DNA from: Planctomycetaceae bacterium UBA6894
GTDB lineage: Bacteria; Planctomycetota; Planctomycetia; Gemmatales; Gemmataceae
DNA: 59,759 nucleotides
NCBI GenBank assembly: GCA_002451275.1
Contig: DKBS01000028.1
Span: 1-59,759, forward strand
Direction of reading: 5' to 3'
Shown one piece after another: positions 20,585 to 31,602 of this stretch. A program made the position numbers and the translations under genes. The first letter of the stretch is position 1, and the number at the start of each line of letters is the position of its first letter. A model generated the notes under the pieces. It worked only from the letters and a program-made list of their open reading frames with translations, searched no databases and had not been told where the DNA came from.

Positions 20585-22474
20585 ATGGCCTGCATGCGGG
20601 GTTGGCTGGTTTTGGCATTGGGTCTGGGAGCGGGCGGCCTGGCCATGGGACAGGTGGCACCGGCACCGACGGATGCCGCCAAGGCCGCAACCGATTCGGT
20701 TAAGGCCAGCTACACGAAGTACGAGTACCAGATCCCAATGCGGGACGGGGTGAAACTGTTCACCGCAGTGTATGTGCCCAAGGATGAATCACAGGCCTAC
20801 CCGATCTTGCTGAACCGCACGCCCTACAGCGTGTCGCCCTACGGCGTGGACAACTACCGCGAGAAACTGGGGCCCTCGGACCTGTTCCAGAAATCGGGCT
20901 ACATCTTCGTGTACCAAGATGTGCGCGGGCGATGGATGTCGGAAGGCACTTTTTTGAATGTGCGGCCGCACCTGCCCAACAAGGGCCCCAAGGACTTTGA
21001 TGAAAGCACCGACACTTTCGACACCATCGAGTTCCTGCTGAAGACCGTTAAGGGGCACAACGGTCGTGTGGGGCAGAGCGGCATCTCCTACCCCGGATTC
21101 AACACCGCCGCCGGCATGATCGACGCGCACCCCGCGCTGAAGGCGTGCAGCCCGCAGGCTCCGGTGATCGACTGGTTCACGGGGGACGACTTCCACCACA
21201 ACGGCTGCTTCTTTTTGGCCCATGCCTTCAACTTCATGTCCGGCTTTGGCAAGGAGCGCCCGCAGCCCACGCGCACCTTCGGCCGGGTTTCCCACGACCA
21301 CCAAACACCCGATGGCTACCAATTTTTCCTGGACATGGGCCCGCTGGTCAACGCCGACAAGAAATACCTGAAGGGCACCATCTCGTTCTGGAACGAGATG
21401 ATGAAGCACGGCACCTACGACGAGTTCTGGCAGGCGATGAACCTGGCGCCGCACCTGAAGAACATCAAGCCGGCGGTGCTGAATGTGGGTGGCTTTTTCG
21501 ACGCGGAAAACCTGTACGGCCCCCTGGCCTGCTACCGTTCGGCGGAGAGGCAGAGCCCGGGGGCCAGCAACCGGCTGGTGATGGGCCCCTGGGACCACGG
21601 CGGCTGGTCACGCGGCACCGGCGAGGGCCTGGGCAACGCCCGTTTCGGCAGCAAAACCTCGGAATATTACCGCGAGAAGATCGAATTCCCGTTCTTCGAG
21701 TTCCACCTGAAGGGGAAGGGCAAGGACGACCTTCCAGAGGCCATGGTTTTTGAAACAGGGACCAATGTGTGGCGGCGCTACGACGCCTGGCCTCCCGCCG
21801 ACAGCCGTGAGCAGAAACTGTTCCTGCTGGAGAAAGGCGCCCTGGGAATGCAGCCAGCCGAGGCCGCCGGATCGGACAGCTACATTTCCGACCCGGCCAA
21901 GCCGGTGCCCCACATCGAGAAAACCACCACCAAGATGGACTACGACTACATGACGGCCGACCAGCGGCACGCCGCGCGCCGTCCGGATGTGCTGGTGTAC
22001 CAGACCCCCGTGCTGACCCAGGACCTCACCCTGGTGGGTCCGGTCACCGTGGACCTGCAGGTGAGCACCACCGGTACCGACGCCGACTGGGTGGTGAAGC
22101 TGGTGGATGTTTTCCCGGCCGACTACCCCGATTACGAGCCCAATCCGGCAGGGGTGAAAATGGGCGGGTACCAGATGCTGATCCGTGGCGAGCCGTTCCG
22201 CGGCAAGTTCCGCAACAGCTTCAGCAAGCCCGAACCGTTCGAGCCAGGCAAGGTGACCCGGGTACGTTTCACGATGCCGGATGTGAACCACACCTTCCGC
22301 CCCGGGCACCGCCTGATGGTGCAGGTGCAGTCCTCCTGGTTCCCGCTGGTGGACCGCAACCCGCAGAAGTTCTGCGACATCTACTCCGCCACCGAGGAAG
22401 ATTTCAGCCGTCAGACGCACCAGGTGCATCGCGGGCCTGAGACCCCAAGCTTCATCACGGTGCGGGTGAAATGA
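20585..22474 (+). CDS. CocE/NonD-family hydrolase (S15 X-Pro dipeptidyl-peptidase-like), secreted
   Basis: Only the distal 629 aa of the 1061-aa track ORF is credible. The ATG at 20585 opens a signal peptide 'MACMRGWLVLALGLGAGGLAMGQ', followed by 'YPILLNRTPYS' and 'GQSGISYPGF' (nucleophile Ser). The upstream part of the track ORF is antisense to the GT1 gene. Confidence 0.85.
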   Translation: MACMRGWLVLALGLGAGGLAMGQVAPAPTDAAKAATDSVKASYTKYEYQIPMRDGVKLFTAVYVPKDESQAYPILLNRTPYSVSPYGVDNYREKLGPSDLFQKSGYIFVYQDVRGRWMSEGTFLNVRPHLPNKGPKDFDESTDTFDTIEFLLKTVKGHNGRVGQSGISYPGFNTAAGMIDAHPALKACSPQAPVIDWFTGDDFHHNGCFFLAHAFNFMSGFGKERPQPTRTFGRVSHDHQTPDGYQFFLDMGPLVNADKKYLKGTISFWNEMMKHGTYDEFWQAMNLAPHLKNIKPAVLNVGGFFDAENLYGPLACYRSAERQSPGASNRLVMGPWDHGGWSRGTGEGLGNARFGSKTSEYYREKIEFPFFEFHLKGKGKDDLPEAMVFETGTNVWRRYDAWPPADSREQKLFLLEKGALGMQPAEAAGSDSYISDPAKPVPHIEKTTTKMDYDYMTADQRHAARRPDVLVYQTPVLTQDLTLVGPVTVDLQVSTTGTDADWVVKLVDVFPADYPDYEPNPAGVKMGGYQMLIRGEPFRGKFRNSFSKPEPFEPGKVTRVRFTMPDVNHTFRPGHRLMVQVQSSWFPLVDRNPQKFCDIYSATEEDFSRQTHQVHRGPETPSFITVRVK

Positions 22475-22487
22475 CGGGAGGCCGAGC

Positions 22488-23513
22488 ATGCGCGCAGCGA
22501 CGGTATGTCTGCTGGTTCTCGCTTTCACCGGAGTCTCCACGGGCATGGAGCCGGAGCCCTGGCTGACTCCCAAGGCTTTGAAGCCCGGTGACACCATCGC
22601 CGTGATCGCACCGGCAGCGCCCGCCACCCATCCCGAATTTGCGGCCTATGTGAAGCTGATGGAGGGGAAGGGGTACCAGGTGATCAGCAAGCCGGGGCTG
22701 GTGGGGCGCAAGGACCACTACCTGGGCGGAACCGATGACGAGCGGGCCGGGGAGATCAACGAGTACCTGCGCGACCCGCGGGTGCGCATGATCATGCCGG
22801 TGCGGGGAGGCTACGGGGTCTCACGCATCCTGGACCGGATCGACTACGCGGCCCTGCGCCGGGACCCCAAGATCATTGCCGGCTATTCCGACCTGACAGC
22901 GCTGCATCTGGGCGCTGCCCGGCACGCGCGGGTGGTCACCTTCCATTCCCCCATGGCGATGCGCGACCTGTGGCGCGAGCAGGAACCCGCCTACGCCTTT
23001 GCGGCCCGGTCGTTTCGGCGGGCGGTGTTCGCCGAGCAGTACCGCATCGGGGAGCGCGGCTTTGTGGTGGAAGGGCCGGAGGGGCATCAAGCGAAAGCGC
23101 TGGTGGGCGGCAAGGCGACCGGCAGGCTTCTGGGAGGCAACCTGAGCCTGGTAGTGACCCTGATGGGAACACCCCACGCCCTGGAACCCAAGGGAGCCAT
23201 CCTTTTCCTGGAGGATGTGAGCGAGCCGGCCTACCGTATCGACCGCTACCTGTCGCAGCTCCGGTTGGGCGGGGTGCTGGACCAAGTGGCCGGTGTGGTG
23301 CTGGGCTCGTTCACCACGAAGGACGAAAAAGAGGAAAAGGATACCGACCGGGTCTTGAAAGACTATTTCGGCAAACTGAAGGTTCCGGTGGTGACGCGCT
23401 ACCCCGTGGGACACACCCCCCAAAACGCCACACTGCCCCACGGGGCGCTGGTGGAACTGGATGCCGACAGGGGAACGCTGAAGGTGCTGGAAAACCCAGT
23501 GCGGGTGGACTGA
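22488..23513 (+). CDS. ldcA: LD-carboxypeptidase (muramoyl-tetrapeptide carboxypeptidase, S66)
   Basis: 'GDTIAVIAPA', 'IMPVRGGYG', 'GYSDLTALH' and 'GHT' near the C-terminus. A GGAGG lies upstream of the ATG. Confidence 0.85.
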   Translation: MRAATVCLLVLAFTGVSTGMEPEPWLTPKALKPGDTIAVIAPAAPATHPEFAAYVKLMEGKGYQVISKPGLVGRKDHYLGGTDDERAGEINEYLRDPRVRMIMPVRGGYGVSRILDRIDYAALRRDPKIIAGYSDLTALHLGAARHARVVTFHSPMAMRDLWREQEPAYAFAARSFRRAVFAEQYRIGERGFVVEGPEGHQAKALVGGKATGRLLGGNLSLVVTLMGTPHALEPKGAILFLEDVSEPAYRIDRYLSQLRLGGVLDQVAGVVLGSFTTKDEKEEKDTDRVLKDYFGKLKVPVVTRYPVGHTPQNATLPHGALVELDADRGTLKVLENPVRVD

Positions 23514-23570: not shown

Positions 23571-23860
23571 GACTTTCCCAAATAAAGATTTATGGCAATT
23601 GACCTTTCCCTGAACAGGGCCCGCACCTATAGCGCCGCCCGTGCTTGGGGATTGGCAGCCATGGACGGCAGCCGGCCCCGGGCACATCGCCCAAAATCCC
23701 TTGGAGAGTCGCAAGGATGCCGACCCTTCCAGCCTCGTGGTTTCGTTGGCTGATGGCACTGCTGCCGTGCTATGTGTGGATCGCCGCGTCACCGCCTCGT
23801 GCCGGTGCGGGTTGAACACCAGCGGGTTGCCCGCCCACCTTTGCCGGCAGTTTGCCGGTC

Positions 23861-24388
23861 ATGATGCCCAGCCAGTTTCAGGCCATGCCCCAGGTGTATG
23901 CAGCGCCGCCGCCCGCTCAGTGGGCACAGCAGCAGCAGCCGATGTACCGGGCCCCTGCCGCCCAGTATCCCGCCCCGTCGCCGCGGATCGCCAGCGCGGT
24001 GCCGCAGCAACCGGCCCAGCCGCGAATCACGGCCCGCGGAGCGATGCCGGACGAGGCACCCGCCCGTGCCCGGATTGAACTGCCAGCCCCGGAAGCTTTC
24101 GGGCTGAAAGCCGCTCCCGATGCGGGGACCAGTCTGGTGGGGAACACACTCGCCAATCAAACCATCCAGATCACGGCTGTGAACTGGACAATGGTGCGCG
24201 AGGAACTGCATCGGCTGGGAGCCAAGAGCTTCCATGTGGAGCAGCTGAATGATGGGCGGCATCGATTTGCCTGCAAAGTAGCCAAGACCACTGGGCAGAT
24301 GGATTTGGTGGAAGTGTTTGGACGGACGGAGGAAGAAGCGGTTCGCTCCGGCCTGGAAAGGGCGAACGCCCTTCGTTACGGATCGTAA
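23861..24388 (+). CDS. Hypothetical Pro/Gln-rich protein upstream of mraZ
   Basis: ORF with a low-complexity N-terminal half (PPPAQWAQQQQPMYRAPAAQYPAPSP) and a more globular C-terminal ~90 aa. The start is ambiguous (TTG at 23852 or ATG at 23861). I recognised no family. Confidence 0.5.
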   Translation: MMPSQFQAMPQVYAAPPPAQWAQQQQPMYRAPAAQYPAPSPRIASAVPQQPAQPRITARGAMPDEAPARARIELPAPEAFGLKAAPDAGTSLVGNTLANQTIQITAVNWTMVREELHRLGAKSFHVEQLNDGRHRFACKVAKTTGQMDLVEVFGRTEEEAVRSGLERANALRYGS

Positions 24389-24509
24389 GTCTCTGAGCAA
24401 TCAGAGCTTTCGGGGGGAGCCCCGGTCGTCCCAATGGACGGCCGGGGCATTTTTGTTGGGTGACCCCGGTGGGGCTGGTTGCCAAACTGCTGGCGGGATT
24501 GATAAGCTG

Positions 24510-24544
24510 GTGGAGCCCAGTGGGGCCAAGTGGGTAATTGTGGG
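24510..24544 (+). promoter_or_regulatory. MraZ operator: four direct GTGG(A/G) repeats at exact 10-bp phasing
   Basis: GTGGA at 24510, then GTGGG at 24520, 24530 and 24540 (gtggagcccaGTGGGgccaaGTGGGtaattGTGGGcagg). The array lies about 50 nt upstream of the mraZ start. This matches the known architecture of MraZ-binding repeats, which are GTGGG-type boxes with 5-nt spacers. Confidence 0.65.
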
Positions 24545-24593
24545 CAGGATTGGCCCTGAAAGGTGGTCCGGAGGGACCTGCGGGGTCATTCCG

Positions 24594-25034
24594 GTGCTGC
24601 TGACAGGAACCCATCGCCGCACGCTGGACGAGAAGAAGCGCCTGACGCTGCCCAAAAAGGTGCGCGAGGTGTTGGGTGAGCCGGGCGTTTTGTATGTGGC
24701 CCCCGGGCCTGACAAGTGCCTGTGGGTGCACACCGAGCAGGAGCTGGAAAGGCTGGCATCTCGCCTGGATGAGCGACCGGCCACCGATGCCGAGGCCCGG
24801 CTGTTCCGACGGCTGTACTTCGGCCAGACGGAACTGGTGGAGGTGGACAAGGCGGGCCGAATTCTGGTGCCGGACCGGTTGGCCCAAGTGGCTGGCCTGA
24901 CGGGTGAGGTGGTGCTGCTAGGCGTGCGGGATCACCTGGAATTGTGGGATGCGGGCCACTGGGACCGCTACCGAACGGAACAGGAACCGCGATTTGACGC
25001 GGTGGCACAAGGAGCTTTTGAGCCCAAGGCGTGA
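24594..25034 (+). CDS. mraZ: Transcriptional regulator MraZ
   Basis: 146 aa from a GTG start. It contains two SpoVT/AbrB-type repeats, 'LDEKKRLTLPKKVREVLG' and 'VDKAGRILVPDRLAQVAGL...VVLLGVRDHLELWD'. The N-terminus aligns with the canonical MFxGxxxxxLDxKGR. The upstream part of the 238-aa track ORF is not MraZ-like. Confidence 0.85.
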   Translation: MLLTGTHRRTLDEKKRLTLPKKVREVLGEPGVLYVAPGPDKCLWVHTEQELERLASRLDERPATDAEARLFRRLYFGQTELVEVDKAGRILVPDRLAQVAGLTGEVVLLGVRDHLELWDAGHWDRYRTEQEPRFDAVAQGAFEPKA

Positions 25035-25155
25035 GACAACGGGGTGCCAAAGCCCCAACGCATTGCGCGTGAGGTGCCCGGGTGAGCAGACCCGGGTCAT
25101 CTGCTGGTGAAAGGGCGGGTTTCCCAGCCATCGCCCTTTTTCCCATGCGCACCCG

Positions 25156-25198
25156 ACAGCCCTCCGGCGGGCCGAGCCCCGGGGGGCTGTCTTTTTTT
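25156..25198 (+). terminator. Intrinsic terminator/attenuator-like hairpin in the mraZ-rsmH spacer
   Basis: The outer stem acagccc / gggctgt encloses a further G/C-rich paired segment and is followed by c and then 7 T (25192-25198). Confidence 0.55.
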
Positions 25199-25291
25199 GC
25201 CCAAAGCGCCCATCCTTCCAGATCAGGCTAGCCTTTTTTTCTGCAACCGGCGGGCGGTACCATTCCCGCCCTTGGCGCCGTATCACTCCCG

Positions 25292-26287
25292 TTGGAGTGG
25301 TCTGCCACCGGGAGAGGTACACAATTGGGTTCACCTGATCACGCCAGCGATGATGACCTGGAAGCGCTTGCTGAAAGCCTTGGCTCCTCAGGAGTTGGGG
25401 CGGGCAAACAGCATGTGCCGGTTTTGCCTTCCGAAGTGTTGGAAGGGCTGAATCCCCAGCCCGGGCAGATTCTGGTGGACCTGACCCTGGGCGGAGGTGG
25501 GCACAGCCGTCTTTTGGCGGAACGGGTGGGGCCCACGGGAAAAGTCTATGCGTTTGACTGCGACCCCCATCAGGTGGAGAAAGCGCGGCAGCGACTGGCC
25601 GGGCTGCCGGTGGAGTGCTTCCACGCGCGCTACGACCAGGCTGGAGAGATCTTGCGGCGATTGGGTGTGAAAGCCCATGGGATTCTGGCAGATCTGGGTA
25701 TTTGTTCGGAGCAATTGGATGATCCCGGGCGCGGATTGGCGTTTCGCCATGAAGGGCCGTTGGATATGCGGTTGGATCCGAGCCGGGGTGAACCGGCCTG
25801 GAAATTGCTTGAACGGTTGGATGAGAACGACCTGACGCGGGCCCTGTTGCGTTACGGCGAGGAGAAGCAGGCGCGCAGGATCGTGCGGAAGATTGTTGAG
25901 GCCCGGAAGGAAGACCTGCCCTGGACCACCACGCGGCTGGCGGAGCTGGTGCGTTCTTGCCTGCCGCCGCGCGGGGTTGTGGGGAAGATCGACCCGGCCA
26001 CCCGGACCTTCCAGGGGTTGCGGATTCTGGTGAACGACGAGTTGGCGGTGCTGGAGGACATGTTGCGGCAGTTGCCCGGCTGGCTGGTACCGGGCGGGTT
26101 GGCGGCGATCATCAGCTTCCATTCGCTGGAGGACCGGCTGGTGAAACAGGCGTTCGCACGGGGCGAGCTGTGGGAACGGGTGACACGCAAGCCAGTGATT
26201 GCCGGCGAGGACGAGGTGAAGGCGAACCCGCGCTCGCGCAGCGCAAAGCTGCGGGTGGCGCGACTGGCAAGCGGACAAGGGCATTAG
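25292..26287 (+). CDS. rsmH: 16S rRNA (cytosine1402-N4)-methyltransferase RsmH (MraW)
   Basis: 'HVPVLPSEVLEGL', 'VDLTLGGGGHS', 'DLGICSEQLDDPGRGLAFRHEGPLDMRLD' and 'ISFHSLEDRLVK'. The start codon is uncertain: there is a TTG at 25292 and no in-frame ATG before the conserved HVPVL. Confidence 0.85.
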   Translation: MEWSATGRGTQLGSPDHASDDDLEALAESLGSSGVGAGKQHVPVLPSEVLEGLNPQPGQILVDLTLGGGGHSRLLAERVGPTGKVYAFDCDPHQVEKARQRLAGLPVECFHARYDQAGEILRRLGVKAHGILADLGICSEQLDDPGRGLAFRHEGPLDMRLDPSRGEPAWKLLERLDENDLTRALLRYGEEKQARRIVRKIVEARKEDLPWTTTRLAELVRSCLPPRGVVGKIDPATRTFQGLRILVNDELAVLEDMLRQLPGWLVPGGLAAIISFHSLEDRLVKQAFARGELWERVTRKPVIAGEDEVKANPRSRSAKLRVARLASGQGH

Positions 26288-26355
26288 CGATCCCCAAGGA
26301 CGGGGAACGGACGGAGACAACGGGAAGGCCCTGAAACGGATTTCAAGGAGCGGCC

Positions 26356-27924
26356 ATGAAAACAACTGAGACGGGCATGTTTTCCAAGGGCGAGTCCAAC
26401 CGCCGTATGGGTTTATACCTAGGGATAGGGCTGGCAGGCGCGGCCGGCCTTGGGTTGGGAATGGCCTGTAAAACAGCGTGGCAACGGCTGTCAACCAACC
26501 CAGCGACGCCAGTCAGCATGACGACAGGCGTGGCCGACAGAGCCCAGAAGACCACCGGGTCTGAACCCACGCCGATGGACAAGTCGATCCTTCAGGAAGC
26601 CTTTGTCGAGGCCTTCGGCCCTCCCGCCGGACTGCCTCCCGGACTGGCACAAGCTGCAACCGAATTGCCTGCCCAGGAAATTCCCTCCTTCAACCTTGCC
26701 CAGGCGCAGGTGCCCGCCCAGGAAAGCGTGCCGGCTACCAATCTAGACGTCCGATTCAACACCCAGGATTTTCCGATCCCTTTGCCCCCGGCTCCCCAAA
26801 TGTTCCGCCATATCGGCCCCGACGGGCTGGAACGGATCGGGATTGATTTTGAAAACAGCCAGCAAGCCCAGAACACACCCATTCAAATCATCAGAAGGTT
26901 CAGGCATGGGGAACAGGCAAAAGTCTGGGCAGTAGCCCAAAATATGGACAAAAACGACCTGGATAAACTAAATAAATGGGCCGGATATCCGGCAATCAGG
27001 CCTCTTATCCAAGACGCTTGCAGCGATGGCTCGACAACCGCCCTTCTGGAAATGGACGAGCAAATTTGCCAGGTTTTAGGCAGTATCCTCATCCAACGGC
27101 GGGGTGCTGACGGCTTGGCACGGATCGGCGTGGATACGGACCGTTTGGGTCTGGATTTCACCGTGATGATCCCCACTAAGAGGAAAGCGCCCAAACCGGG
27201 CAACAAAAACAGCCAGATCGCACAAGCCGTGGCACAGCCCGGCCATTTTGCCGGTTTGATCCAACAGGCCGGGTTTTTTATCCCGGCAGGTGAAACCACC
27301 ACCAACGATGGCAAGCAGTCCGGTGGCGGCGCCGGGGGAATGGCCAAGGTCGGTCCAGCGTCCCCCATGGGTCTGGAAAAGGGCACGCTGGGTTCGCAAG
27401 AACCGGAACCGCTAATCGGCTCCTTCACCACGGAGTTTGAGGACGGCTACCTGAAACTGCCCGAGGAACTGGCAGGCTGGGTGGTGGAAGGGAAAATCTT
27501 CATCACCCCGGGACCGGATGGCGGCTTGCGCATGGCACCGCTGGAAGATCTGGAAACCATGTTCAGCAACGAGAACGATCCGCAGGCCAACCGCGCGGAC
27601 AACGGCGACATTTCCGCCAAGGAATCCGGGCCCAGCATCCAGTCGCTCCGACGCAACATGCGGCGCTTCTACGGATTGATGACAGCCTGCACCCCCGAGG
27701 AGGACGAGGAGGGCGGCTTGTGGATTCCGCTGGGTGACCAACTGGCCAAGCAGGCCGGCCTTAAGGGCGAGGTGGTGATCGTGGGCATGCGCACCCACGC
27801 TGAGATCTGGTCCAAGGAAGGCTGGGAGGCTGAGCTGGCCACACCCAAGGTGCCAGCGCCACCCAAACAACTGGAACTGCAGAAAGTGGAGAGCCGGACT
27901 AAGACCGCCACTCCGGGCAAGTGA
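26356..27924 (+). CDS. Protein with a hydrophobic N-terminal segment and a C-terminal MraZ-like (double SpoVT/AbrB-type) module; no known function
   Basis: ATG preceded by AAGGAG (26345-26350). One hydrophobic segment, 'GLYLGIGLAGAAGLGLGMA', lies near the N-terminus. The C-terminal ~150 aa aligns by eye to the adjacent MraZ: 'IGSFTTEFEDGYLKLPEELAGW..IFITPGPDGGL' against 'LTGTHRRTLDEKKRLTLPKKVREV..LYVAPGPDKCL', and 'GGLWIPLGDQLAKQAGLKGEVVIVGMRTHAEIWSKEGW' against 'GRILVPDRLAQVAGLTGEVVLLGVRDHLELWDAGHW'. Confidence 0.7.
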   Translation: MKTTETGMFSKGESNRRMGLYLGIGLAGAAGLGLGMACKTAWQRLSTNPATPVSMTTGVADRAQKTTGSEPTPMDKSILQEAFVEAFGPPAGLPPGLAQAATELPAQEIPSFNLAQAQVPAQESVPATNLDVRFNTQDFPIPLPPAPQMFRHIGPDGLERIGIDFENSQQAQNTPIQIIRRFRHGEQAKVWAVAQNMDKNDLDKLNKWAGYPAIRPLIQDACSDGSTTALLEMDEQICQVLGSILIQRRGADGLARIGVDTDRLGLDFTVMIPTKRKAPKPGNKNSQIAQAVAQPGHFAGLIQQAGFFIPAGETTTNDGKQSGGGAGGMAKVGPASPMGLEKGTLGSQEPEPLIGSFTTEFEDGYLKLPEELAGWVVEGKIFITPGPDGGLRMAPLEDLETMFSNENDPQANRADNGDISAKESGPSIQSLRRNMRRFYGLMTACTPEEDEEGGLWIPLGDQLAKQAGLKGEVVIVGMRTHAEIWSKEGWEAELATPKVPAPPKQLELQKVESRTKTATPGK

Positions 27925-27951
27925 ACCGTCCACCCCGGACTACCTGCCCAC

Positions 27952-30330
27952 ATGCCAGATCAACTGATTGAGAACGGGAGAAAAGCCATGGCCATGACCA
28001 CCGAAGTCAAAACCGGGATGATGGTCTCGGGTGCCTTCGCCAGCCTGGTGGGTGCTGTCCTCACCAAACACTATGTTTCCCCAGATGAATTGCTGGGCCA
28101 CAAGGCACCCACCGAGCAGGTAGCCCCTGCCGACGGCGAGGTGAAATTGCCAGATGGGATCGAGGCTGCCAAGGGGACGACCGCGCTAACCTCGGGCCCA
28201 ACCGATCCCAAGAACGAAGTGGTGCTGGCATCAGCAAGCGGTACTGAAAAGGATTCGGCACCACCACCGCCGGTACCCAGCCCAGGCGACCTGCTACCAC
28301 CCCCGCCAACCCCCGCAGGGGCTAGTCCATCGACCACCGACACGATGCCACCGGCCCCGGGCGCGCCGGCGCCCATCGACAAACCGATGGATCTGGCCGC
28401 GCCGGCCCCTGCTTCCCGATCCCTGACGGGTGGAGATCTCGCCCCCCCGGCTCCACCCGCACCGGGCGGTTTGCCACCTTTGGAAGAAAAAAAATCCGCT
28501 GAAGCCTTGGCGCCACCACCTCCGGCGGGAACGGATGCGACCCCAAGTGCCAGCGCACCGCCCGACCCGGCCAAACTGGCCCAGGGCTTGCTGCCCCCGC
28601 CTCCGAGCGGTGGAAACACCCCTCCGGCCCCAGCCGCCCTGACCAGTTCCCCGACACCACCGCCTGACGCCGCCAAACTGGCTGAATCCTTGGTGCCACC
28701 CGCACCGGGCGGCGGCGGATTGGCCCCCCCCGCACCCCCGCCTGCCGCGGGAAGCACCACGGCCATGCCCGACCTGACCAAACCAATGGACAGCTTGGCC
28801 CCCCCTGCCCCAGGCGGCGGGTTGGCTCCAACCCCGCCAGCGGCTCCCTCGGTTTTGCCCGGTGGCCACACCCCCATGCCCAATTTGGCCCAGTCCCTGG
28901 ACAACCCGGCACCACCGGCTCCCCCCGGTGGTTTCGCACCGCCTGCAGCACCAGCACCTTTGTCCTCCGGAACGCCAGGCAGTTTTGCACCGCCCGCAGC
29001 CCCTGTTACCACCGGTGATTTGACGCCACCCGCAACACGGAACGCGACCGTTGGCGGGGCAGTGGGGTCTGGCGGCCTGGCCCTAGCCAGTGAGTCATTC
29101 CCCTCGGAGCCGGGCAAGCCCGGTATCGCACGGGTTTTGACCTTCCCGCTTTCCAATGGGCCCGAAAAACGATCAGAATCAATTCCGTTGGATGAGCCTG
29201 GCTTCCCTGTAGGCCGTTCCGTGGGCGGGGCACCTTCCCTGGCCACCGGATCCCTGCCACCCAGCGGCCCACCCCCATTGGCTGGTCCCAGCGGCTCCGA
29301 GGGCGCAGCCCTGCCACCCTCCGGCATGCCCGGCAACCTGAACGCGCCGGCCAGCCCATCCCGGCCGGCGGCCTTCGTACCAGTGGAAGGACGGAACATC
29401 CCCGTGCTGACCATGCAGCCCAACCCGGGCCAACCCATGCCCATCACCCCGGGATCCATTCCGGTCCCGACTGCGGGGGCCGGCTTGCCCCTCAACCCGA
29501 ACACGGTGACCAACACCGTCAACGGGCTGAACAACAATCTCAACAACACCGCCAACAGCCTTGCCAATCAGGCCAACAACACCGTGGGCGGCTTGAACAA
29601 CCAGTTGAACAGCGCGGTGAACGGGGCAAACGCCAACCTGAACGCCGCCACCAACAATCTCAACAACACGGCCAGCGGATTGAACAATTCCCTGAACGAT
29701 GCTACCCGGAGCCTGAACAACACCGCCACCAACCTGAACAACCAAGCCAACTCCACCCTCAACGGGTTGAACAACAGCCTGAACACCACCAACAACAATC
29801 TCAACAACACCGTCAATGGGCTGAACACCCAGGTGAATGGTGCCACCAACAGCCTCAACAACACGGTCAGCGGGCTCAACAACAGCCTGAACAACACCAA
29901 CAACAATCTCAACAACACCGTCAATGGGCTGAACACCCAGATGAACAGTGCCACTAACAACCTCAACAACACGGTCAACGGGCTCAACAACAACCTGAAC
30001 AACACGACCAAGGGCCTGAACAACACCGTGAGCGGCTTGAACAACAACCTCAGCACCGCCACCAACAATCTCAACAACACCTTGAGCAGCGTGAACGGAG
30101 CCGTTTCTTCGTGGACCGAGCAGGCCTACAGGGTGCAATCCGGCGATTCCTGGGAGAAAATCAGCCAGGCACAATACGGCAGCACGCTGTACGCGCCTAC
30201 GCTGAGGACATTCAATCAGACCCACCCGCGCGCCAGTGAAACCCTGGCGAAGGACGGCACTCCGGTGGCCGGCCAGGAGGTTTACCTGCTACCCTTGGAC
30301 CAGATACGCAAGCTCACAACCACACCCTGA
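27952..30330 (+). CDS. Membrane-anchored Pro-rich / Asn-rich repeat protein with a C-terminal LysM domain
   Basis: N-terminal hydrophobic segment 'MMVSGAFASLVGAVL'. About 380 aa are Pro/Ala/Gly-rich (repeated 'LAPPAPGGG'-type units), followed by about 200 aa of Asn-rich repeats ('NNLNNTVNGLN'). The C-terminal 'YRVQSGDSWEKISQAQYG...VAGQEVYLLP' fits the LysM pattern Y.V..GD....I....Y......N.......G....P. An alternative start is the ATG at 27988 (GGGAG upstream). Confidence 0.7.
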   Translation: MPDQLIENGRKAMAMTTEVKTGMMVSGAFASLVGAVLTKHYVSPDELLGHKAPTEQVAPADGEVKLPDGIEAAKGTTALTSGPTDPKNEVVLASASGTEKDSAPPPPVPSPGDLLPPPPTPAGASPSTTDTMPPAPGAPAPIDKPMDLAAPAPASRSLTGGDLAPPAPPAPGGLPPLEEKKSAEALAPPPPAGTDATPSASAPPDPAKLAQGLLPPPPSGGNTPPAPAALTSSPTPPPDAAKLAESLVPPAPGGGGLAPPAPPPAAGSTTAMPDLTKPMDSLAPPAPGGGLAPTPPAAPSVLPGGHTPMPNLAQSLDNPAPPAPPGGFAPPAAPAPLSSGTPGSFAPPAAPVTTGDLTPPATRNATVGGAVGSGGLALASESFPSEPGKPGIARVLTFPLSNGPEKRSESIPLDEPGFPVGRSVGGAPSLATGSLPPSGPPPLAGPSGSEGAALPPSGMPGNLNAPASPSRPAAFVPVEGRNIPVLTMQPNPGQPMPITPGSIPVPTAGAGLPLNPNTVTNTVNGLNNNLNNTANSLANQANNTVGGLNNQLNSAVNGANANLNAATNNLNNTASGLNNSLNDATRSLNNTATNLNNQANSTLNGLNNSLNTTNNNLNNTVNGLNTQVNGATNSLNNTVSGLNNSLNNTNNNLNNTVNGLNTQMNSATNNLNNTVNGLNNNLNNTTKGLNNTVSGLNNNLSTATNNLNNTLSSVNGAVSSWTEQAYRVQSGDSWEKISQAQYGSTLYAPTLRTFNQTHPRASETLAKDGTPVAGQEVYLLPLDQIRKLTTTP
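29490..30100 (+). repeat. In-frame tandem coding repeats (Asn-rich), including a 108-nt near-perfect tandem duplication
   Basis: The 42-nt string aacaacaatctcaacaacaccgtcaatgggctgaacacccag occurs identically at 29791-29832 and 29899-29940, an offset of 108 nt (36 aa). The flanks are near-identical. The core 'aacaatctcaacaacac' recurs five times, near 29534, 29653, 29794, 29902 and 30064. Confidence 0.8.
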
Positions 30331-30381: not shown

Positions 30382-31602
30382 GTGCGGCTGGCGATGTTTC
30401 TTCCCCACCTAGGGGTATCCGGTGGCCTTGGGGTCCATTGCCGGGCGCTGCTGGAATCGCTGGCCACCTGCGGCGCAAAAGCGGGCCTGCACCTGGATGT
30501 GATTTGCCCGTCCAACCCGCAGTCGCTTTTTCCCCTGGCGGGTCTGGATGACACTTGGCAACCACTGGTCCGGCGCGACCATCTCACCCTGCACAGCATC
30601 GACTGGCCCGGCGGGCTTTCGCTGGCCGATGTGCTGGATCCAGCCCTGCTGGATCTGGTGCGCTCGCTGAAGCCGGACCTATTCTACGCCTCGTACTACA
30701 CCGGGCTGGAAAAGCCACCCTGCCCGCAGGCCATCACTTTCCATGACGCGGGATTTCTGGAATTCCCGCATGTGTTTGGCGACACAGCGCGCAAGCGGCG
30801 TGAGACCCTGGCGCGGATCGGCGGCGCGGTGGACCGGTTGCTGTGCGTTTCGTCCGATGCCCGGGACCGCATCTGCCGGCTGCTCCCCTTTCCAAAGGAA
30901 CGCGCCGAGGTGGTGTGGCACGCACTGTACGACCCGCCGGCCACCCTGGAAAGCGCCCGCGATACCGCCCAGATGAACCAACCCCTCTGGCCGGGGGGGG
31001 ATCGGGTCACCGATTGGGGTGACTATGTTTTCCTGCCGGTGGGAGCTGCCACCGGTTTCAACCGTGTGCGCAAAAATGTTCCCTTGGGCGTACGGGCATT
31101 CCGGGCAGTGCAGAATCCCGCCTTGAGGCTGGTGGTGGCCAGCACGGGAACGCTGAACGACCAGATGCTGGGCCAGTTGATCGACCCCGCCGAACAGGCC
31201 GCCGGCCGTTTTGAACGGGGCGTCTGGGTTTCGGGTGATGGCAGGGTGCTGATCCTGCCCAACCTGGACCGGTTGCCTTTCCTGCGAGCAATGGCTCACG
31301 CCAAGGCCGTGCTATACCCCACCCGGTACGAAGGATTTGGCCTGCCCAGCATCGAGGCCATGGCCCTGAGAACACCCCTCATCGCCGGCGACGCGACCAG
31401 CGTTCCGGAGGTTGTGGGGGATGCAGGCATCCTGGTGCCTCCCGATGACCAATCTGGCTTCACCCGGGCCATGGAACAGGTGCTGACCGACCGGTCCCTG
31501 CGGGAAAGCCTTATCCAAAAGGGCTCGGAGCGATTGAACCTCTTCACCCCAGCCCGCATGGGTGAGCGCATGCTGCACGTTTTTTCGGGGATGCTGGCCT
31601 GA
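30382..31602 (+). CDS. GT4-family glycosyltransferase
   Basis: GTG start. 'MRLAMFLPHLGVSGGLGVH' is a typical GT4 N-terminus. 'YPTRYEGFGLPSIEAMALRTPLIAGDATSVPEVVGDAGILVPPDD' carries the EX7E-type motif. Confidence 0.85.
   Translation: MRLAMFLPHLGVSGGLGVHCRALLESLATCGAKAGLHLDVICPSNPQSLFPLAGLDDTWQPLVRRDHLTLHSIDWPGGLSLADVLDPALLDLVRSLKPDLFYASYYTGLEKPPCPQAITFHDAGFLEFPHVFGDTARKRRETLARIGGAVDRLLCVSSDARDRICRLLPFPKERAEVVWHALYDPPATLESARDTAQMNQPLWPGGDRVTDWGDYVFLPVGAATGFNRVRKNVPLGVRAFRAVQNPALRLVVASTGTLNDQMLGQLIDPAEQAAGRFERGVWVSGDGRVLILPNLDRLPFLRAMAHAKAVLYPTRYEGFGLPSIEAMALRTPLIAGDATSVPEVVGDAGILVPPDDQSGFTRAMEQVLTDRSLRESLIQKGSERLNLFTPARMGERMLHVFSGMLA

Follow-up and report, generated by a model that had tools for sequence, protein, structure and literature searches.

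A membrane-anchored MraZ derivative and a LysM-like membrane protein are encoded downstream of mraZ-rsmH in Gemmataceae and related Planctomycetia

The DNA analysed here (the window; contig DKBS01000028.1, 59,759 nt) carries on its forward strand, in this order, a promoter-like element and a four-box operator, mraZ, a structured RNA with a terminator, rsmH, and two genes that we call X (ORF3) and Y (ORF4). This segment is the local version of a gene order kept across Gemmataceae and related Planctomycetia. The first-pass annotation had described mraZ-rsmH followed by two co-directional envelope ORFs, and this was borne out: the ORFs extend from 26356 to 27924 (522 aa) and from 27952 to 30330 (792 aa), with gaps of 68 and 27 nt, the latter applying to an ORF4 start at 27952. 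Codon-position GC is gene-like in all ORFs. The proposed PVC host was likewise correct, as the relatives of the window are Gemmataceae MAGs and the window encodes members of the planctomycete-specific PSCyt and DUF1501 families.

An intrinsic terminator found by a terminator scan (24419-24458, + strand; a 13-bp stem with 11 G-C pairs and a T run) ends the upstream unit, which includes a small ORF (23852-24388), and bounds the mraZ unit on its 5' side; the related loci L001, L003, L004, and L006 have kept the hairpin. A gene for an S66 LD-carboxypeptidase is located just upstream of the mraZ cluster. A promoter-like element read from the sequence, TTGCCA-N16-GATAAG (24479-24506, + strand), immediately precedes the MraZ boxes, and the corresponding TTGCCA...TGATA is conserved upstream of mraZ in L001-L006. 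Since a simple sigma-70 scan did not call the element, we infer rather than assign a promoter at this position. The operator (24510-24544, + strand) comprises four direct GTGG(A/G) boxes with a 10-bp period (GTGGAgccca GTGGGgccaa GTGGGtaatt GTGGG), and a search for a three-box pattern with at most 1 mismatch gave two overlapping matches in it (0.10 expected by chance). Conserved arrays of three to five boxes precede mraZ in L001-L008, and the known MraZ site consists of GTG(T/G) box repeats (PMC12957436). Position 24510, formerly taken as the start of mraZ, is thus the first nucleotide of the operator.

The mraZ gene (24594-25034, + strand) most likely starts at GTG 24594 and encodes a canonical DNA-binding repressor of 146 aa (MLLTGTHRRTLDEKKR...), which scores 108.9 bits against TIGR00242 (cutoff 98.35) and E=1.5e-24 against Pfam MraZ. 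The D-K-R-D-R pentad that reads DNA is intact in this protein and in all 55 stand-alone planctomycete MraZ proteins examined. The rsmH (mraW) gene (25292-26287, + strand; the exact start is uncertain, with 25325 chosen by gene callers) encodes the 16S rRNA m4C1402 methyltransferase, with 286.2 bits against TIGR00006 (cutoff 154.3) and 283.9 bits against PF01795; the 320-aa gene calls for it show 100% identity.

In agreement with the first-pass annotation, no gene for FtsL, a PBP or a Mur protein was detected when the remaining genes of the window, roughly 36, were scanned with Pfam. This absence is not new, since the literature already documents that Gemmatales have lost ftsL, ftsI and mur genes: most dcw and peptidoglycan-synthesis genes are lost in Gemmatales, Pirellulales, and Isosphaerales, and murA, murC, murD, murF, murG, murJ, ftsW, and ftsZ are reportedly missing altogether from Gemmatales genomes (PMC12283558). 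These reports argue against the view that the segment is a decayed duplicate of a dcw head, the genome having a full canonical cluster with a separate mraZ-rsmH at another place. The phylum does offer a precedent for duplicated heads, as Planctopirus limnophila has two mraW paralogues, Plim_2101 and Plim_4021 (PMC10632474); however, mraZ and rsmH of the window score as full equivalogs with intact catalytic and DNA-binding signatures, the operator is conserved, no ORF departs from gene-like codon-position GC, and the arrangement is kept across many lineages, which makes decay highly improbable.

Compared to the canonical dcw head of Escherichia coli and Bacillus subtilis (mraZ-rsmH-ftsL-ftsI), the first two genes and the GTGGG-type repeat array by the promoter are alike, and, as with ftsL and ftsI, the products of the following genes are single-pass membrane proteins, probably oriented towards the cell wall. 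The planctomycete head differs in that signatures of FtsL, PBP3 or Mur proteins could not be detected, an MraZ-derived and a LysM membrane protein taking their place, and in that mraZ and rsmH are set apart by a structured RNA with a terminator. Mycoplasma genitalium, with its reduced dcw cluster (mraZ, mraW, MG_223, ftsZ), likewise has an uncharacterised lineage-specific gene after mraZ-mraW (PMC8475190); that third gene is, however, unrelated, ftsZ is retained, and the organism lacks a cell wall.

The structured RNA between mraZ and rsmH (25065-25198, + strand) consists of a three-way junction and an intrinsic terminator. The junction is closed by P1 (25065-25071 paired with 25144-25150) and bears a hairpin (25077-25096) with a conserved GAGCAG loop and a second hairpin that includes the conserved UCCCAGCC (25122-25129), while the strong terminator (25155-25198) is formed by GACAGCCCUCC...GGGGGCUGUC followed by U7. 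The region is conserved at the DNA level in six loci. It folds with an MFE of -84.1 kcal/mol (z = -5.2; as-good folds in 0/200 shuffles), and the six window-type sequences share a consensus fold of 45 pairs, 19 of which show compensatory changes. More distant loci have a variant with 12 covarying pairs, a number reached by 0/500 shuffles, and the model built on this variant matches this intergenic region only. Rfam contains no family that matches the RNA. The mraW RNA motif of Actinomycetota (RF01746) is similar in being a conserved structured RNA directly upstream of rsmH/mraW; the planctomycete RNA differs by its three-way junction, AGCAG loop and UCCCAGCC, to which the window type adds the terminator, and the RF01746 model gave no match to it even at E <= 10. 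The first-pass annotation had placed the ORF3-ORF4 pair, as a candidate module, under the MraZ regulon. The terminator-ending conserved RNA that separates mraZ from rsmH-ORF3-ORF4 renders this uncertain; the coupling to the MraZ promoter is probably conditional, and rsmH-ORF3-ORF4 may be expressed by regulated read-through or from a separate promoter. No convincing terminator was found from rsmH to the end of ORF4, the lone + strand match (27251-27272, inside ORF3) being weak and the scan total being 9 against 10.1 expected.

ORF3 (26356-27924, + strand) encodes a single-pass membrane protein of 522 aa, in which a variable middle part precedes an MraZ-derived domain at the C-terminus. Its transmembrane segment (aa 20-38, LYLGIGLAGAAGLGLGMAC; 26413-26469, + strand) corresponds to the sole 19-residue Kyte-Doolittle window above 1.6, is predicted to be helical, and is conserved in the family. 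The middle domain shows a weak similarity (probability 0.93, E 0.3) to the periplasmic domains of GspL/XcpY. The "second MraZ-like module" seen earlier in this protein proved to be a complete two-repeat MraZ fold rather than a fragment: aa 353-496 (27412-27843, + strand) include both SpoVT/AbrB-like repeats (pLDDT 70-83), the C-terminus is 32% identical to residues 13-124 of the window MraZ (BLASTP, E=4e-13), and Foldseek matches the AlphaFold model to the MraZ crystal structure 1n0e with a TM score of 0.72-0.77 (E about 1e-8). The domain scores below the Pfam and NCBIfam thresholds.

Comparison of this domain to MraZ (PF02381/TIGR00242; PDB codes: 1N0E, 9QLG, 9R4J) shows that the two-repeat fold and the interface residues R66, R70, E113, F68, and F73 are kept, R70 and E113 being conserved in 64/64 X domains. 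Unlike MraZ, X is membrane-anchored and its gene lies downstream of rsmH, the domain is strongly acidic (net charge about -11, against -2 for MraZ), and the DNA-reading positions are replaced (F361/D363/Y365, G454). K13, R15, and R86, each of which is essential for DNA binding by M. genitalium MraZ (PMC12957436), are all three absent from window-type X, and R15 is retained in only 11/57 other X domains. In lineages without an adjacent mraZ, a few X domains have a fully canonical pentad (DKRDR in L050, DKRNR in L017 and L023). The C-terminal domain of X is the descendant of a duplicated mraZ in which the fold and the interface residues were kept and the DNA-reading residues lost. Window-type X is fast-evolving, on a long branch; its close homologues are few (13 in a set of 5.8e9 proteins, 7 clusters in a set of 1.84e9 representatives) and are always positioned after rsmH. 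X-type proteins carry the database label "MraZ", and our literature search found no paper describing X or Y.

ORF4 was predicted earlier as a 792-aa protein from 27952; the ORF itself stands, but the start is probably ATG 27988 (27988-30330, + strand; MAMTTEVK..., 780 aa), which is used by gene callers and agrees with the ORF4 homologues, hence the gap to ORF3 is 63 nt. Its only hydrophobic segment by hydropathy (aa 19-38; 28006-28065, + strand) is the transmembrane segment, and the pattern K.G....G.F..L.G.V forms invariant columns out to distant relatives. Composition and alignment delimit a Pro/Ala-rich spacer (28234-29481, + strand; 26.7% Pro in aa 95-510), inside which there is a conserved central block, FPSEPGKPGIARVLTFP...VPVLTM. 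It is followed by an Asn-rich repeat region (29482-30099, + strand; aa 511-716, 38.8% Asn) with hydrophobic residues at 3-4-7 spacing (heptad/hendecad) and DNA repeat periods of 21, 33, 54, and 108 nt. The length of this region differs among relatives, and its repeats have weak, sub-threshold matches to the helical repeats of apolipophorin, perilipin, and the ZorA tail. The transmembrane segment, Pro-rich spacer and Asn-rich repeats were thus described correctly, while the terminal LysM-like domain (30121-30318, + strand; beta-alpha-alpha-beta with an inserted helix) is supported only at the level of the fold: Pfam LysM gives 16.3 bits, under the 20.9 cutoff, whereas the family profile has its PDB matches mainly in LysM proteins (E 0.004-0.07), and the best structural matches of the AlphaFold model (pLDDT 75) are almost only LysM domains, those of Kbp, MltD, NlpC/P60, and phage baseplates at the top.

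The layout of ORF4 (a short N-terminal peptide, one transmembrane segment, a long Pro-rich or low-complexity, presumably periplasmic spacer and a small C-terminal domain predicted to bind glycan) is that of the division proteins FtsN, DedD, and DamX, which end in SPOR, and of the LysM-bearing envelope factors DipM, NlpD, and MltD; ORF4 ends in a LysM-like domain instead of SPOR, contains no enzymatic domain, and is not homologous in sequence to any of them. The best structural match of its end domain, Kbp/YgaU, is a cytoplasmic BON-LysM protein, from which ORF4 differs by the lack of a BON domain, by its membrane anchor, and by its very long spacer. ORF4 relatives are named 'YgaU' by JGI.

All close relatives have homologues of ORF3 and ORF4 after mraZ-rsmH, and L001-L006 share the order S66, small ORF, mraZ, rsmH, X, Y (and GT4). 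Among more distant planctomycete contigs with rsmH and at least 2.5 kb downstream of it, X and/or Y (as domain-equivalent genes) directly follow rsmH in 50/50, and the same holds for the 6/6 contigs that were reached via RsmH alone; Y-equivalent proteins come after rsmH or X in 45 of the 50 loci. The X-Y pair is a conserved planctomycete feature and not a local oddity. The GT4 glycosyltransferase gene reported after ORF4 is present and co-directional (30382-31602, + strand; Pfam Glycos_transf_1, Glyco_trans_1_4, and Glyco_transf_4), syntenic and 76-79% identical in L002, L003, and L006, and absent after the module in L008, L009, and L010, so the linkage is confined to the closest clade.

X and Y could be ordinary lineage-specific envelope anchors, rich in Pro and low-complexity sequence, which have simply inherited their gene order and have no functional tie to MraZ, RsmH, or division, the MraZ-like domain being a drifting relic. 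The great variability of X/Y spacers in length and composition, Asn-rich repeats that come and go, the fast evolution of window-type X, flanking genes (GT4 included) that are not conserved, and the dispensability of rsmH in P. limnophila (PMC10632474) fit this explanation. It is, however, at odds with an adjacency to rsmH that holds without exception in the 50 loci, down to 49-60% RsmH identity, with the 4-7 nt overlap of rsmH and the next gene in several lineages (L002, L009, L010, and L091), with the conservation of the transmembrane and N-terminal peptide sequences, and with the strongly conserved MraZ-like core and interface, which is not expected of a relic. We regard this explanation as quite improbable.

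The membrane orientation of X and Y bears on their function. Both start with similar, conserved, charged N-terminal peptides (M.TRETK / M..RKTQ), and the charges flanking the transmembrane segment show a weak N-in lean for most X and Y, the counts being near-balanced. In many relatives a canonical LysM stands just before the MraZ-like domain of X, and this combination within one polypeptide (P0177, P0192, P0234, P0265, and others; 27 loci) implies that both domain types are on the same side of the membrane. LysM domains of bacteria are extracytoplasmic in nearly all cases. We know of no MraZ-fold protein outside the cytoplasm, MraZ being known only as a cytoplasmic ring-forming DNA binder. In L008/L055-type X, positive charges follow the hydrophobic segment, a pattern which suggests the opposite orientation, and the DNA-competent-looking X domains of L050, L017, and L023 are easier to explain with a cytoplasmic, DNA-facing domain.

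The latter observations agree with the main rival to a periplasmic function, namely that X is N-out/C-in like ZipA and that its Pro-rich linker is a tether within the cytoplasm, for which ZipA and FtsK are precedents. The domain derived from MraZ would join free MraZ in mixed rings, or bind DNA where free MraZ is missing, and so hold the regulator at the membrane and tune the repression of the GTGGG-box promoter, while the LysM would sense cytoplasmic muropeptides or precursors. Oligomerisation of MraZ modulates its DNA affinity (PMC12957436), and X encoded next to a canonical mraZ keeps the interface and not the DNA-reading residues, as expected of a decoy subunit; Kbp/YgaU demonstrates that a LysM can be cytoplasmic, and the S66 LD-carboxypeptidase encoded upstream belongs to a cytoplasmic type of peptidoglycan-recycling enzyme. 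X shares with ZipA and the FtsK linker a transmembrane anchor, a long Pro-rich linker and a globular domain for a cytoplasmic partner or DNA. However, homology to ZipA or FtsK is lacking, the N-terminus of ZipA is nearly uncharged, and the two or three charged residues that precede the transmembrane segment in most X and Y disfavour N-out. Y, with its similar N-terminus and 400-aa Pro-rich spacer, lacks an MraZ-like domain altogether. In the mraZ-less clade any of R, Q, T, V, A, and C may occupy the R15 position, a freedom that speaks against selection for DNA reading, and GTGGG box arrays were not found near rsmH in mraZ-less loci. Together with the prevalent location of LysM domains, this leaves a cytoplasmic role fairly unlikely.

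We tentatively propose that X and Y form a periplasmic tether from the inner membrane to peptidoglycan, clustered via MraZ-type oligomerisation. The short conserved N-terminal peptides would be cytoplasmic and the remainder of both proteins periplasmic, the Pro-rich spacers would cross the wide planctomycete periplasm, and the LysM domains would attach to glycan in the peptidoglycan layer. The domain of MraZ origin, presumably no longer DNA-binding, would build X into MraZ-like multimers, which with Y may constitute a multivalent anchor. The module would be produced together with RsmH and be linked to the MraZ-repressed promoter via the RNA leader and terminator, with probably regulated read-through. 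The X-Y pair provides concrete candidates for envelope organisation in planctomycetes that lack FtsZ.

Profile scans and the ORF listing of the window confirmed the gene order that the first-pass annotation had read from the sequence, i.e. mraZ and rsmH followed by two co-directional ORFs and a GT4 glycosyltransferase gene, all on the + strand. mraZ (TIGR00242, 108.9 bits against a cutoff of 98.35; Pfam, 86.2 against 23) does not start at 24510 as had been stated; 24510-24544 is occupied by four direct boxes and the most likely start is the GTG at 24594 (24594-25034). rsmH (mraW) starts at 25292, 25325 or later, and its product is assigned by profile, at the equivalog level, as the SAM-dependent 16S rRNA m4C1402 methyltransferase (TIGR00006, 286.2 bits against 154.3; PF01795, positions 3-307 of 309). 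ORF3 (26356-27924, 522 aa) and its homologues are called X here, and ORF4 (27952-30330) and its homologues Y. The ORF of 792 aa ascribed to Y is real, its start, however, is most probably at 27988. The GT4 gene (30382-31602) encodes the GT-B fold domains Glyco_transf_4 and Glycos_transf_1 (PF13439, 46.9 bits; PF00534, 61.8; PF13692, 61.1; all above cutoffs). Codon-position GC is gene-like in all five genes.

Among the other ~36 genes of the window, Pfam scans detected none for FtsL, a PBP or a Mur protein, in agreement with the earlier reading that ftsL, PBP3 and mur genes are missing here. The planctomycete-specific families PSCyt1, PSCyt2, PSD1 and DUF1501 are present (Pfam). A MAG contig in NCBI (GCA_002331825.1) corresponds to the window, whose closest named relatives are Gemmataceae MAGs. 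Gemmatales, Pirellulales and Isosphaerales are known to have lost ftsZ, ftsA, ftsB, murA, murC, murD, murF, murG, murJ and ftsW, while mraW is one of just three dcw genes retained throughout the PVC superphylum (PMC12283558). The absence of ftsL, ftsI and mur is thus expected from published work; what is new here is what occupies their place. FtsL, FtsI and FtsN identities were rejected for the two ORFs. FtsL is small and bitopic and has a periplasmic leucine zipper; neither ORF matches a Pfam or NCBIfam FtsL/DivIC model and both are 5-7 times longer (as FtsL is poorly recognisable from sequence, weight is given to the negative model result alone). FtsI/PBP3 was rejected, the transpeptidase and PBP dimerisation domains being unmatched anywhere in the window (Pfam, NCBIfam). 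FtsN-like proteins end in a SPOR domain, whereas ORF4 has no SPOR match and ends in a LysM-like domain.

Upstream of the mraZ unit lie genes for an S15 X-Pro dipeptidyl-peptidase (~20600-22474, +) and an S66 LD-carboxypeptidase (22488-23513, +), the latter an enzyme of the peptidoglycan-recycling type; both are syntenic in the close relatives L001, L003, L004 and L006. Directly 5' of mraZ, a small ORF (23852-24388, +) encodes 178 aa with a Pro/Gln-rich N-terminus and a C-terminal domain of ~70 aa, has no match in Pfam or NCBIfam and ends at a strong terminator. It is 63-71% identical in the same four relatives and more weakly conserved, at 34-44%, in L008 and L056-L061.

ORF3 has one hydrophobic segment (aa 20-38). 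In the alignment, a conserved EAFVEAFGPPAGLP motif comes next, and a variable middle part separates it from the C-terminal region, which is again conserved. The C-terminus matches residues 13-124 of the MraZ of the window (BLASTP, 32% identity, E=4e-13), and the same relation is found in every relative (tblastn). The AlphaFold model of X is confident only at aa 353-496 (pLDDT 70-83), residues 1-177 and 242-352 being of low confidence. The X domain matches 1N0E, 9QLG and 9R4J in Foldseek with a target-normalised TM of 0.72-0.77 (E ~1e-8) and superposes on 1n0e with an rmsd of 3.4 Å over ~147 columns. The C-terminal region of X is a complete MraZ paralogue, composed of two tandem SpoVT/AbrB-like repeats; the second MraZ-like module that had been suspected in the 522-aa ORF thus proves, by BLASTP and Foldseek, to be a complete MraZ fold. 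It scores below the curated thresholds (Pfam, 19.4-21.2 bits against 23; TIGR00242, 28.3 against 98.35). While MraZ is small, soluble and encoded 5' of rsmH, ORF3 has 522 aa and an N-terminal TM segment and is encoded 3' of rsmH.

In the 2026 cryo-EM study of MraZ from M. genitalium, K13, R15 and R86 are each essential for box binding and are positioned by D11 and D82 (PMC12957436). This DNA-reading pentad, DKRDR, is intact in the MraZ of the window (LDEKKR, VDKAGR), likewise in 55/55 stand-alone planctomycete copies collected. In ORF3, the positions of K13, R15 and R86 are taken by D363 (or a gap), Y365 and G454, and that of D11 by F361; none of the seven window-type X proteins (the close-relative form) keeps any of the three basic reading residues. 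The ORF3 domain is strongly acidic, its net charge being ~ -11 against -2 for MraZ. The interface residues R66, R70, E113, F68 and F73 are conserved across the wider X family, from which window-type ORF3 retains R66, R70 and E113, not the F68/F73 positions. Since the reading residues are replaced and interface residues are conserved, canonical DNA reading is very probably lost in the MraZ fold of X, which may still oligomerise. MraZ itself forms ring oligomers, octamer to dodecamer.

Two other readings of parts of ORF3 were rejected. A lipoprotein or a cleavable signal peptide is contradicted by the lack of a lipobox and by a Cys, next to the hydrophobic segment, that the family does not conserve; the structural match of the middle domain to GspL is weak (E 0.3) and not reliable. 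A short motif, (I)GPDGLERIGIDF / GADGLARIGVD, is found twice in ORF3 (aa 153-168 and 250-270), the copies flanking an inserted domain that is present in some family members only; an unrelated protein of 1238 aa from a Pirellulales MAG (L007, 8984-12700) has two copies as well. An X homologue in L092 (7930-9561) has ~90 extra residues beyond the MraZ-like domain (…FFVDGKQAYLLESMDGRAQLYVTAQAGLNLDAYVNRTVDLRGPTIYHGELRSNYMTAATVNLLQ).

Y begins with a conserved peptide and a TM segment (MAMTTEVKTGMMVSGAFASLVGAVLTKHY), so that both ORFs are membrane-anchored and the envelope character attributed to them holds. The TM segment, Pro-rich spacer and Asn-rich repeats described for Y are all seen in its composition and alignment. 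The spacer is a Pro/Ala-rich stretch of 400 aa (26.7% Pro) with a conserved block (FPSEPGKPGIARVLTFP...VPVLTM). The Asn-rich region (29482-30099) comprises ~200 aa with 38.8% Asn and hydrophobic residues spaced 3-4-7, its DNA repeat periods being 21, 33, 54 and 108 nt; it resembles a rod of amphipathic helices or coiled coil. The length of the array is lineage-variable (absent or short in the relatives L002, L008, L009 and L010), and a similar N/D-rich helical stretch is found in a distant Y homologue (L093, 8173-9945). The idea that the Asn-rich repeats carry N-glycosylation sequons, tied to the GT4 gene, was rejected, as 19 N-x-S/T sites against 16.4 ± 2.8 expected are no enrichment.

The C-terminal domain of Y (~65 aa) scores 16.3 bits against Pfam LysM (PF01476; gathering threshold 20.9), over the first 17 profile positions only. 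A profile of 11 Y-type domains retrieved mostly LysM proteins from the PDB (E 0.004-0.2), including LysM receptor kinases, LytE, Kbp, Ecp6 and SafA. The AlphaFold model (pLDDT 75) has a beta-alpha-alpha-beta order plus one extra helix, and nearly all of its top Foldseek matches are LysM domains (rmsd 2.5-3 Å over ~58 residues; probability 0.9-1.0, but E 0.02-1). Relatives of Y are named 'YgaU' by the JGI pipeline. On the basis of the model, we accept a LysM-type fold for this domain; the LysM assignment made for the 792-aa protein therefore stands at the level of the fold and not at the Pfam threshold. From the predicted fold, we infer that the domain may bind peptidoglycan.

The strict ORF3 family is small, with 13 proteins among 5.8e9 and 7 clusters among 1.84e9 representatives (E<1e-10). 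All contigs carrying it show the order S66 LD-carboxypeptidase, small ORF, mraZ, rsmH, X, Y, and GT4 follows wherever the contig reaches beyond Y (L002, L003 and L006). A scan of GTDB genomes with the derived, narrow patterns returned 4 loci. At 70% RsmH identity (L008), mraZ and rsmH are followed by a 265-aa TM plus MraZ-like protein and a Y-like protein; at 58-61% (L009, L010, L091 and L093), a Y-like protein with TM, spacer, LysM-like domain and canonical LysM stands directly 3' of rsmH. In L092 the order is mraZ, rsmH, X (TM, spacer, LysM, MraZ-like) and Y. Altogether, X and/or Y follow rsmH in 6/6 look-ups made via RsmH, which were unselected for X or Y.

Among the weak matches of the HMM search were many single chains of 260-490 aa composed of TM, Pro-rich spacer, canonical LysM and MraZ-like domain (P0177, P0192, P0194, P0220, P0234, P0265, P0273 and others). 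A metagenome scan with these proteins gave 184 relatives and 80 loci kept, in 50 of which rsmH is present with 2.5 kb or more of sequence 3' of it. After rsmH, 22 of the 50 encode a LysM+MraZ-like protein followed by a LysM protein; 15 encode a MraZ-like protein followed by a LysM protein, as in the window; 8 have LysM+LysM, 5 have an X-type gene alone (Y not detected) and none has anything else. The subset retrieved by mraZ is unbiased for 3' content, and the module is present in all of its members with enough downstream sequence (L066, L068-L071, L073, L074, L081, L082 and L090). The synteny around mraZ-rsmH in relatives, which had been proposed as a check, is thus decisive (50/50 loci and 6/6 RsmH look-ups): the X and Y genes are locked to rsmH. 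In L002, L009, L010 and L091 rsmH overlaps the next gene by 4-7 nt, which argues for co-transcription and translational coupling. The reading that X and Y are functionally unlinked envelope proteins is unlikely, and the reading that the locus is a decayed duplicate is very improbable.

In a neighbour-joining tree, canonical MraZ forms one clade (100/100 bootstraps) with most X domains as its sister clade, window-type X lying on a long branch. The simplest history suggested by these sequences would be that mraZ was duplicated once, long ago, that the copy was joined to a Y-like membrane protein, and that X of the window lineage lost its LysM later. The 440-490-aa proteins P0177, P0192, P0220, P0234 and P0265 are named 'MraZ protein' or 'division/cell wall cluster transcriptional repressor MraZ' in JGI/IMG; on TM-LysM-MraZ-like proteins this label hides the architecture and is probably functionally wrong. 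Full-text literature searches found no description of such fusion proteins. We class the module as a dcw-cluster head in which an exapted, membrane-anchored paralogue of MraZ is accompanied by LysM partners; it occurs far more widely than in the window alone.

The first-pass annotation had placed the candidate module under MraZ control. In the mraZ promoter region, 24510-24544 reads GTGGAgccca GTGGGgccaa GTGGGtaatt GTGGG, four direct boxes with a 10-bp period, for which the three-box pattern gives 2 overlapping matches (≤1 mismatch) against 0.10 expected by chance, and the boxes upstream of mraZ are kept in relatives. GTG(G/T) box arrays are the known type of MraZ operator (PMC12957436). The terminator of the upstream gene (24419-24458, 13-bp stem) is followed on its 3' side by a conserved TTGCCA-N16-GATAAG. 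MraZ control is complicated by a conserved RNA and terminator 5' of rsmH. Conservation is higher in the mraZ-rsmH spacer than in the coding DNA on either side, and the spacer contains, at 25065-25198 (+), a structured RNA consisting of a three-way junction and an 11-13-bp G+C-rich terminator with U7. Its P1 pairs GCGCGUG with CAUGCGC; one hairpin has a GAGCAG loop and another carries UCCCAGCC. The minimum free energy is -84.1 kcal/mol (z = -5.2; 0/200 shuffles fold as well), and in six window-type sequences 19 of 45 pairs show compensatory changes. The terminator stem is invariant in sequence, which suggests an additional, alternative pairing of this stretch.

In more distant loci a related element shares the AGCAG-loop hairpin; it has 12 covarying pairs and 92% of cells are paired (0/500 shuffles). 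Spacers with structured RNA (the window, L001-L008, L029-L048, L053-L058 and L065-L090) occur only where canonical mraZ is present, and the invariant terminator is an addition of the window-type loci. The covariance model of the distant variant matches this intergenic region only, in 20 loci; it gives weak matches in the window-type L001 and L004 (E 0.03-0.07) and none in the intergenic region of the window or in mraZ-less loci. A single model for both variants was therefore abandoned; their homology is likely. Rfam has no match at gathering threshold in the whole window and none relevant at E ≤ 10 in 24980-25340, and the covariance model of the actinobacterial mraW motif (RF01746) does not match the RNA. 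The element is a candidate for a new cis-regulatory leader or riboswitch, or for a mraZ 3'-UTR element.

As a conserved terminator stands between the MraZ-controlled promoter and rsmH, expression of rsmH, X and Y needs read-through, possibly controlled by a ligand or protein, or a second promoter (25200-25400). A transcript ending before 26356, which had been held to argue against a shared unit, is thus possible at the mraZ/rsmH junction; from rsmH to the end of ORF4 the scan gave one + strand terminator match, weak, inside ORF3 (27251-27272), its total count being at chance level. Within 25199-25400, 3' of the terminator, window-type loci share a conserved block, GGGTACCATCCCCGGCCTTG(A/T)T, that resembles the -35-like motif CCTTGATT of mraZ-less loci. 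This block is possibly a promoter of rsmH alone, in which case the true rsmH start (25292, 25325 or later) is uncertain.

Nine loci (L012, L016-L018, L021, L023, L050, L059 and L062) have no mraZ upstream of rsmH. The GTGGG boxes and the RNA element are absent upstream of rsmH in these loci, which share a promoter-like CCTTGATT-N17-(A)TGAGTATAGT there. They bear on the proposal that X is a membrane-bound, cytoplasmic MraZ decoy or tether modulating the boxed promoter, which we consider rather doubtful. Several observations point towards it. X of L050 has a complete DKRDR pentad (LDEKGRLTLP / IDSDGRVAIP) and X of L017 and L023 keeps K, R and R; in X of the L008 and L055 type the positive charges follow the TM segment, the best structural match to the LysM-like domain of Y is Kbp, a cytoplasmic protein, every known MraZ is cytoplasmic, and long Pro-rich tethers can be cytoplasmic, as in ZipA and FtsK. 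The R15 position, however, drifts freely even within the mraZ-less clade, and there are no box arrays near rsmH in these loci. The same two observations led us to reject X as a functional DNA-binding MraZ where mraZ is missing, a rejection that leaves the intact pentad of the L050 type unaccounted for.

We tentatively favor, at slightly less than even confidence, a periplasmic tether in which X and Y extend between inner membrane and peptidoglycan. The MraZ-like and LysM domains share one polypeptide in relatives and hence act in one compartment. Both proteins would be N-in/C-out, crossing the enlarged planctomycete periplasm to the peptidoglycan layer. This orientation draws on the short, conserved, charged N-terminal peptides (M.TRETK in Y, M..RKTQ in X); on flanking charges that lean weakly N-in for most members, positive-inside counts being near-balanced, inconsistent between subfamilies and only weak evidence; and on the LysM domains and long Pro-rich spacers, which are typical of periplasm-spanning anchors, e.g. 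TonB and FtsN. The LysM domains would bind the glycan of peptidoglycan and the MraZ-derived domain would cluster X into multimers, giving a multivalent tether or scaffold. A direct division role of X and Y is possible. It would be a long shot that they are the core of an FtsZ-independent envelope-growth/budding machinery, a peptidoglycan-tethered, MraZ-derived membrane ring in the FtsL/FtsI slot with synthesis gated by a riboswitch-like RNA, or else that X is the first membrane-bound anti-MraZ factor, coupling the state of the cell wall to dcw transcription.

According to PMC10632474, the dcw genes are dispensable in Planctopirus limnophila. Its mraW paralogues, Plim_2101 and Plim_4021, are two in number and neither is essential; it also has a 'Peptidoglycan-binding LysM' gene, Plim_1787, two genes from the PBP-like Plim_1789. 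Conservation of X and Y is strong, and their genes are physically linked to those dcw genes that alone survive group-wide. Recruitment of the MraZ fold into a membrane protein, often LysM-fused, with loss of the DNA-reading residues, is a new use of this fold, and the name 'MraZ' in public annotation of X-type proteins is misleading. The RNA with its terminator is a candidate new class of cis-regulatory RNA before a SAM-dependent rRNA methyltransferase operon. For FtsZ-less budding division and peptidoglycan handling after dcw loss (PMC12283558, PMC10632474), there are now two specific proteins to probe.
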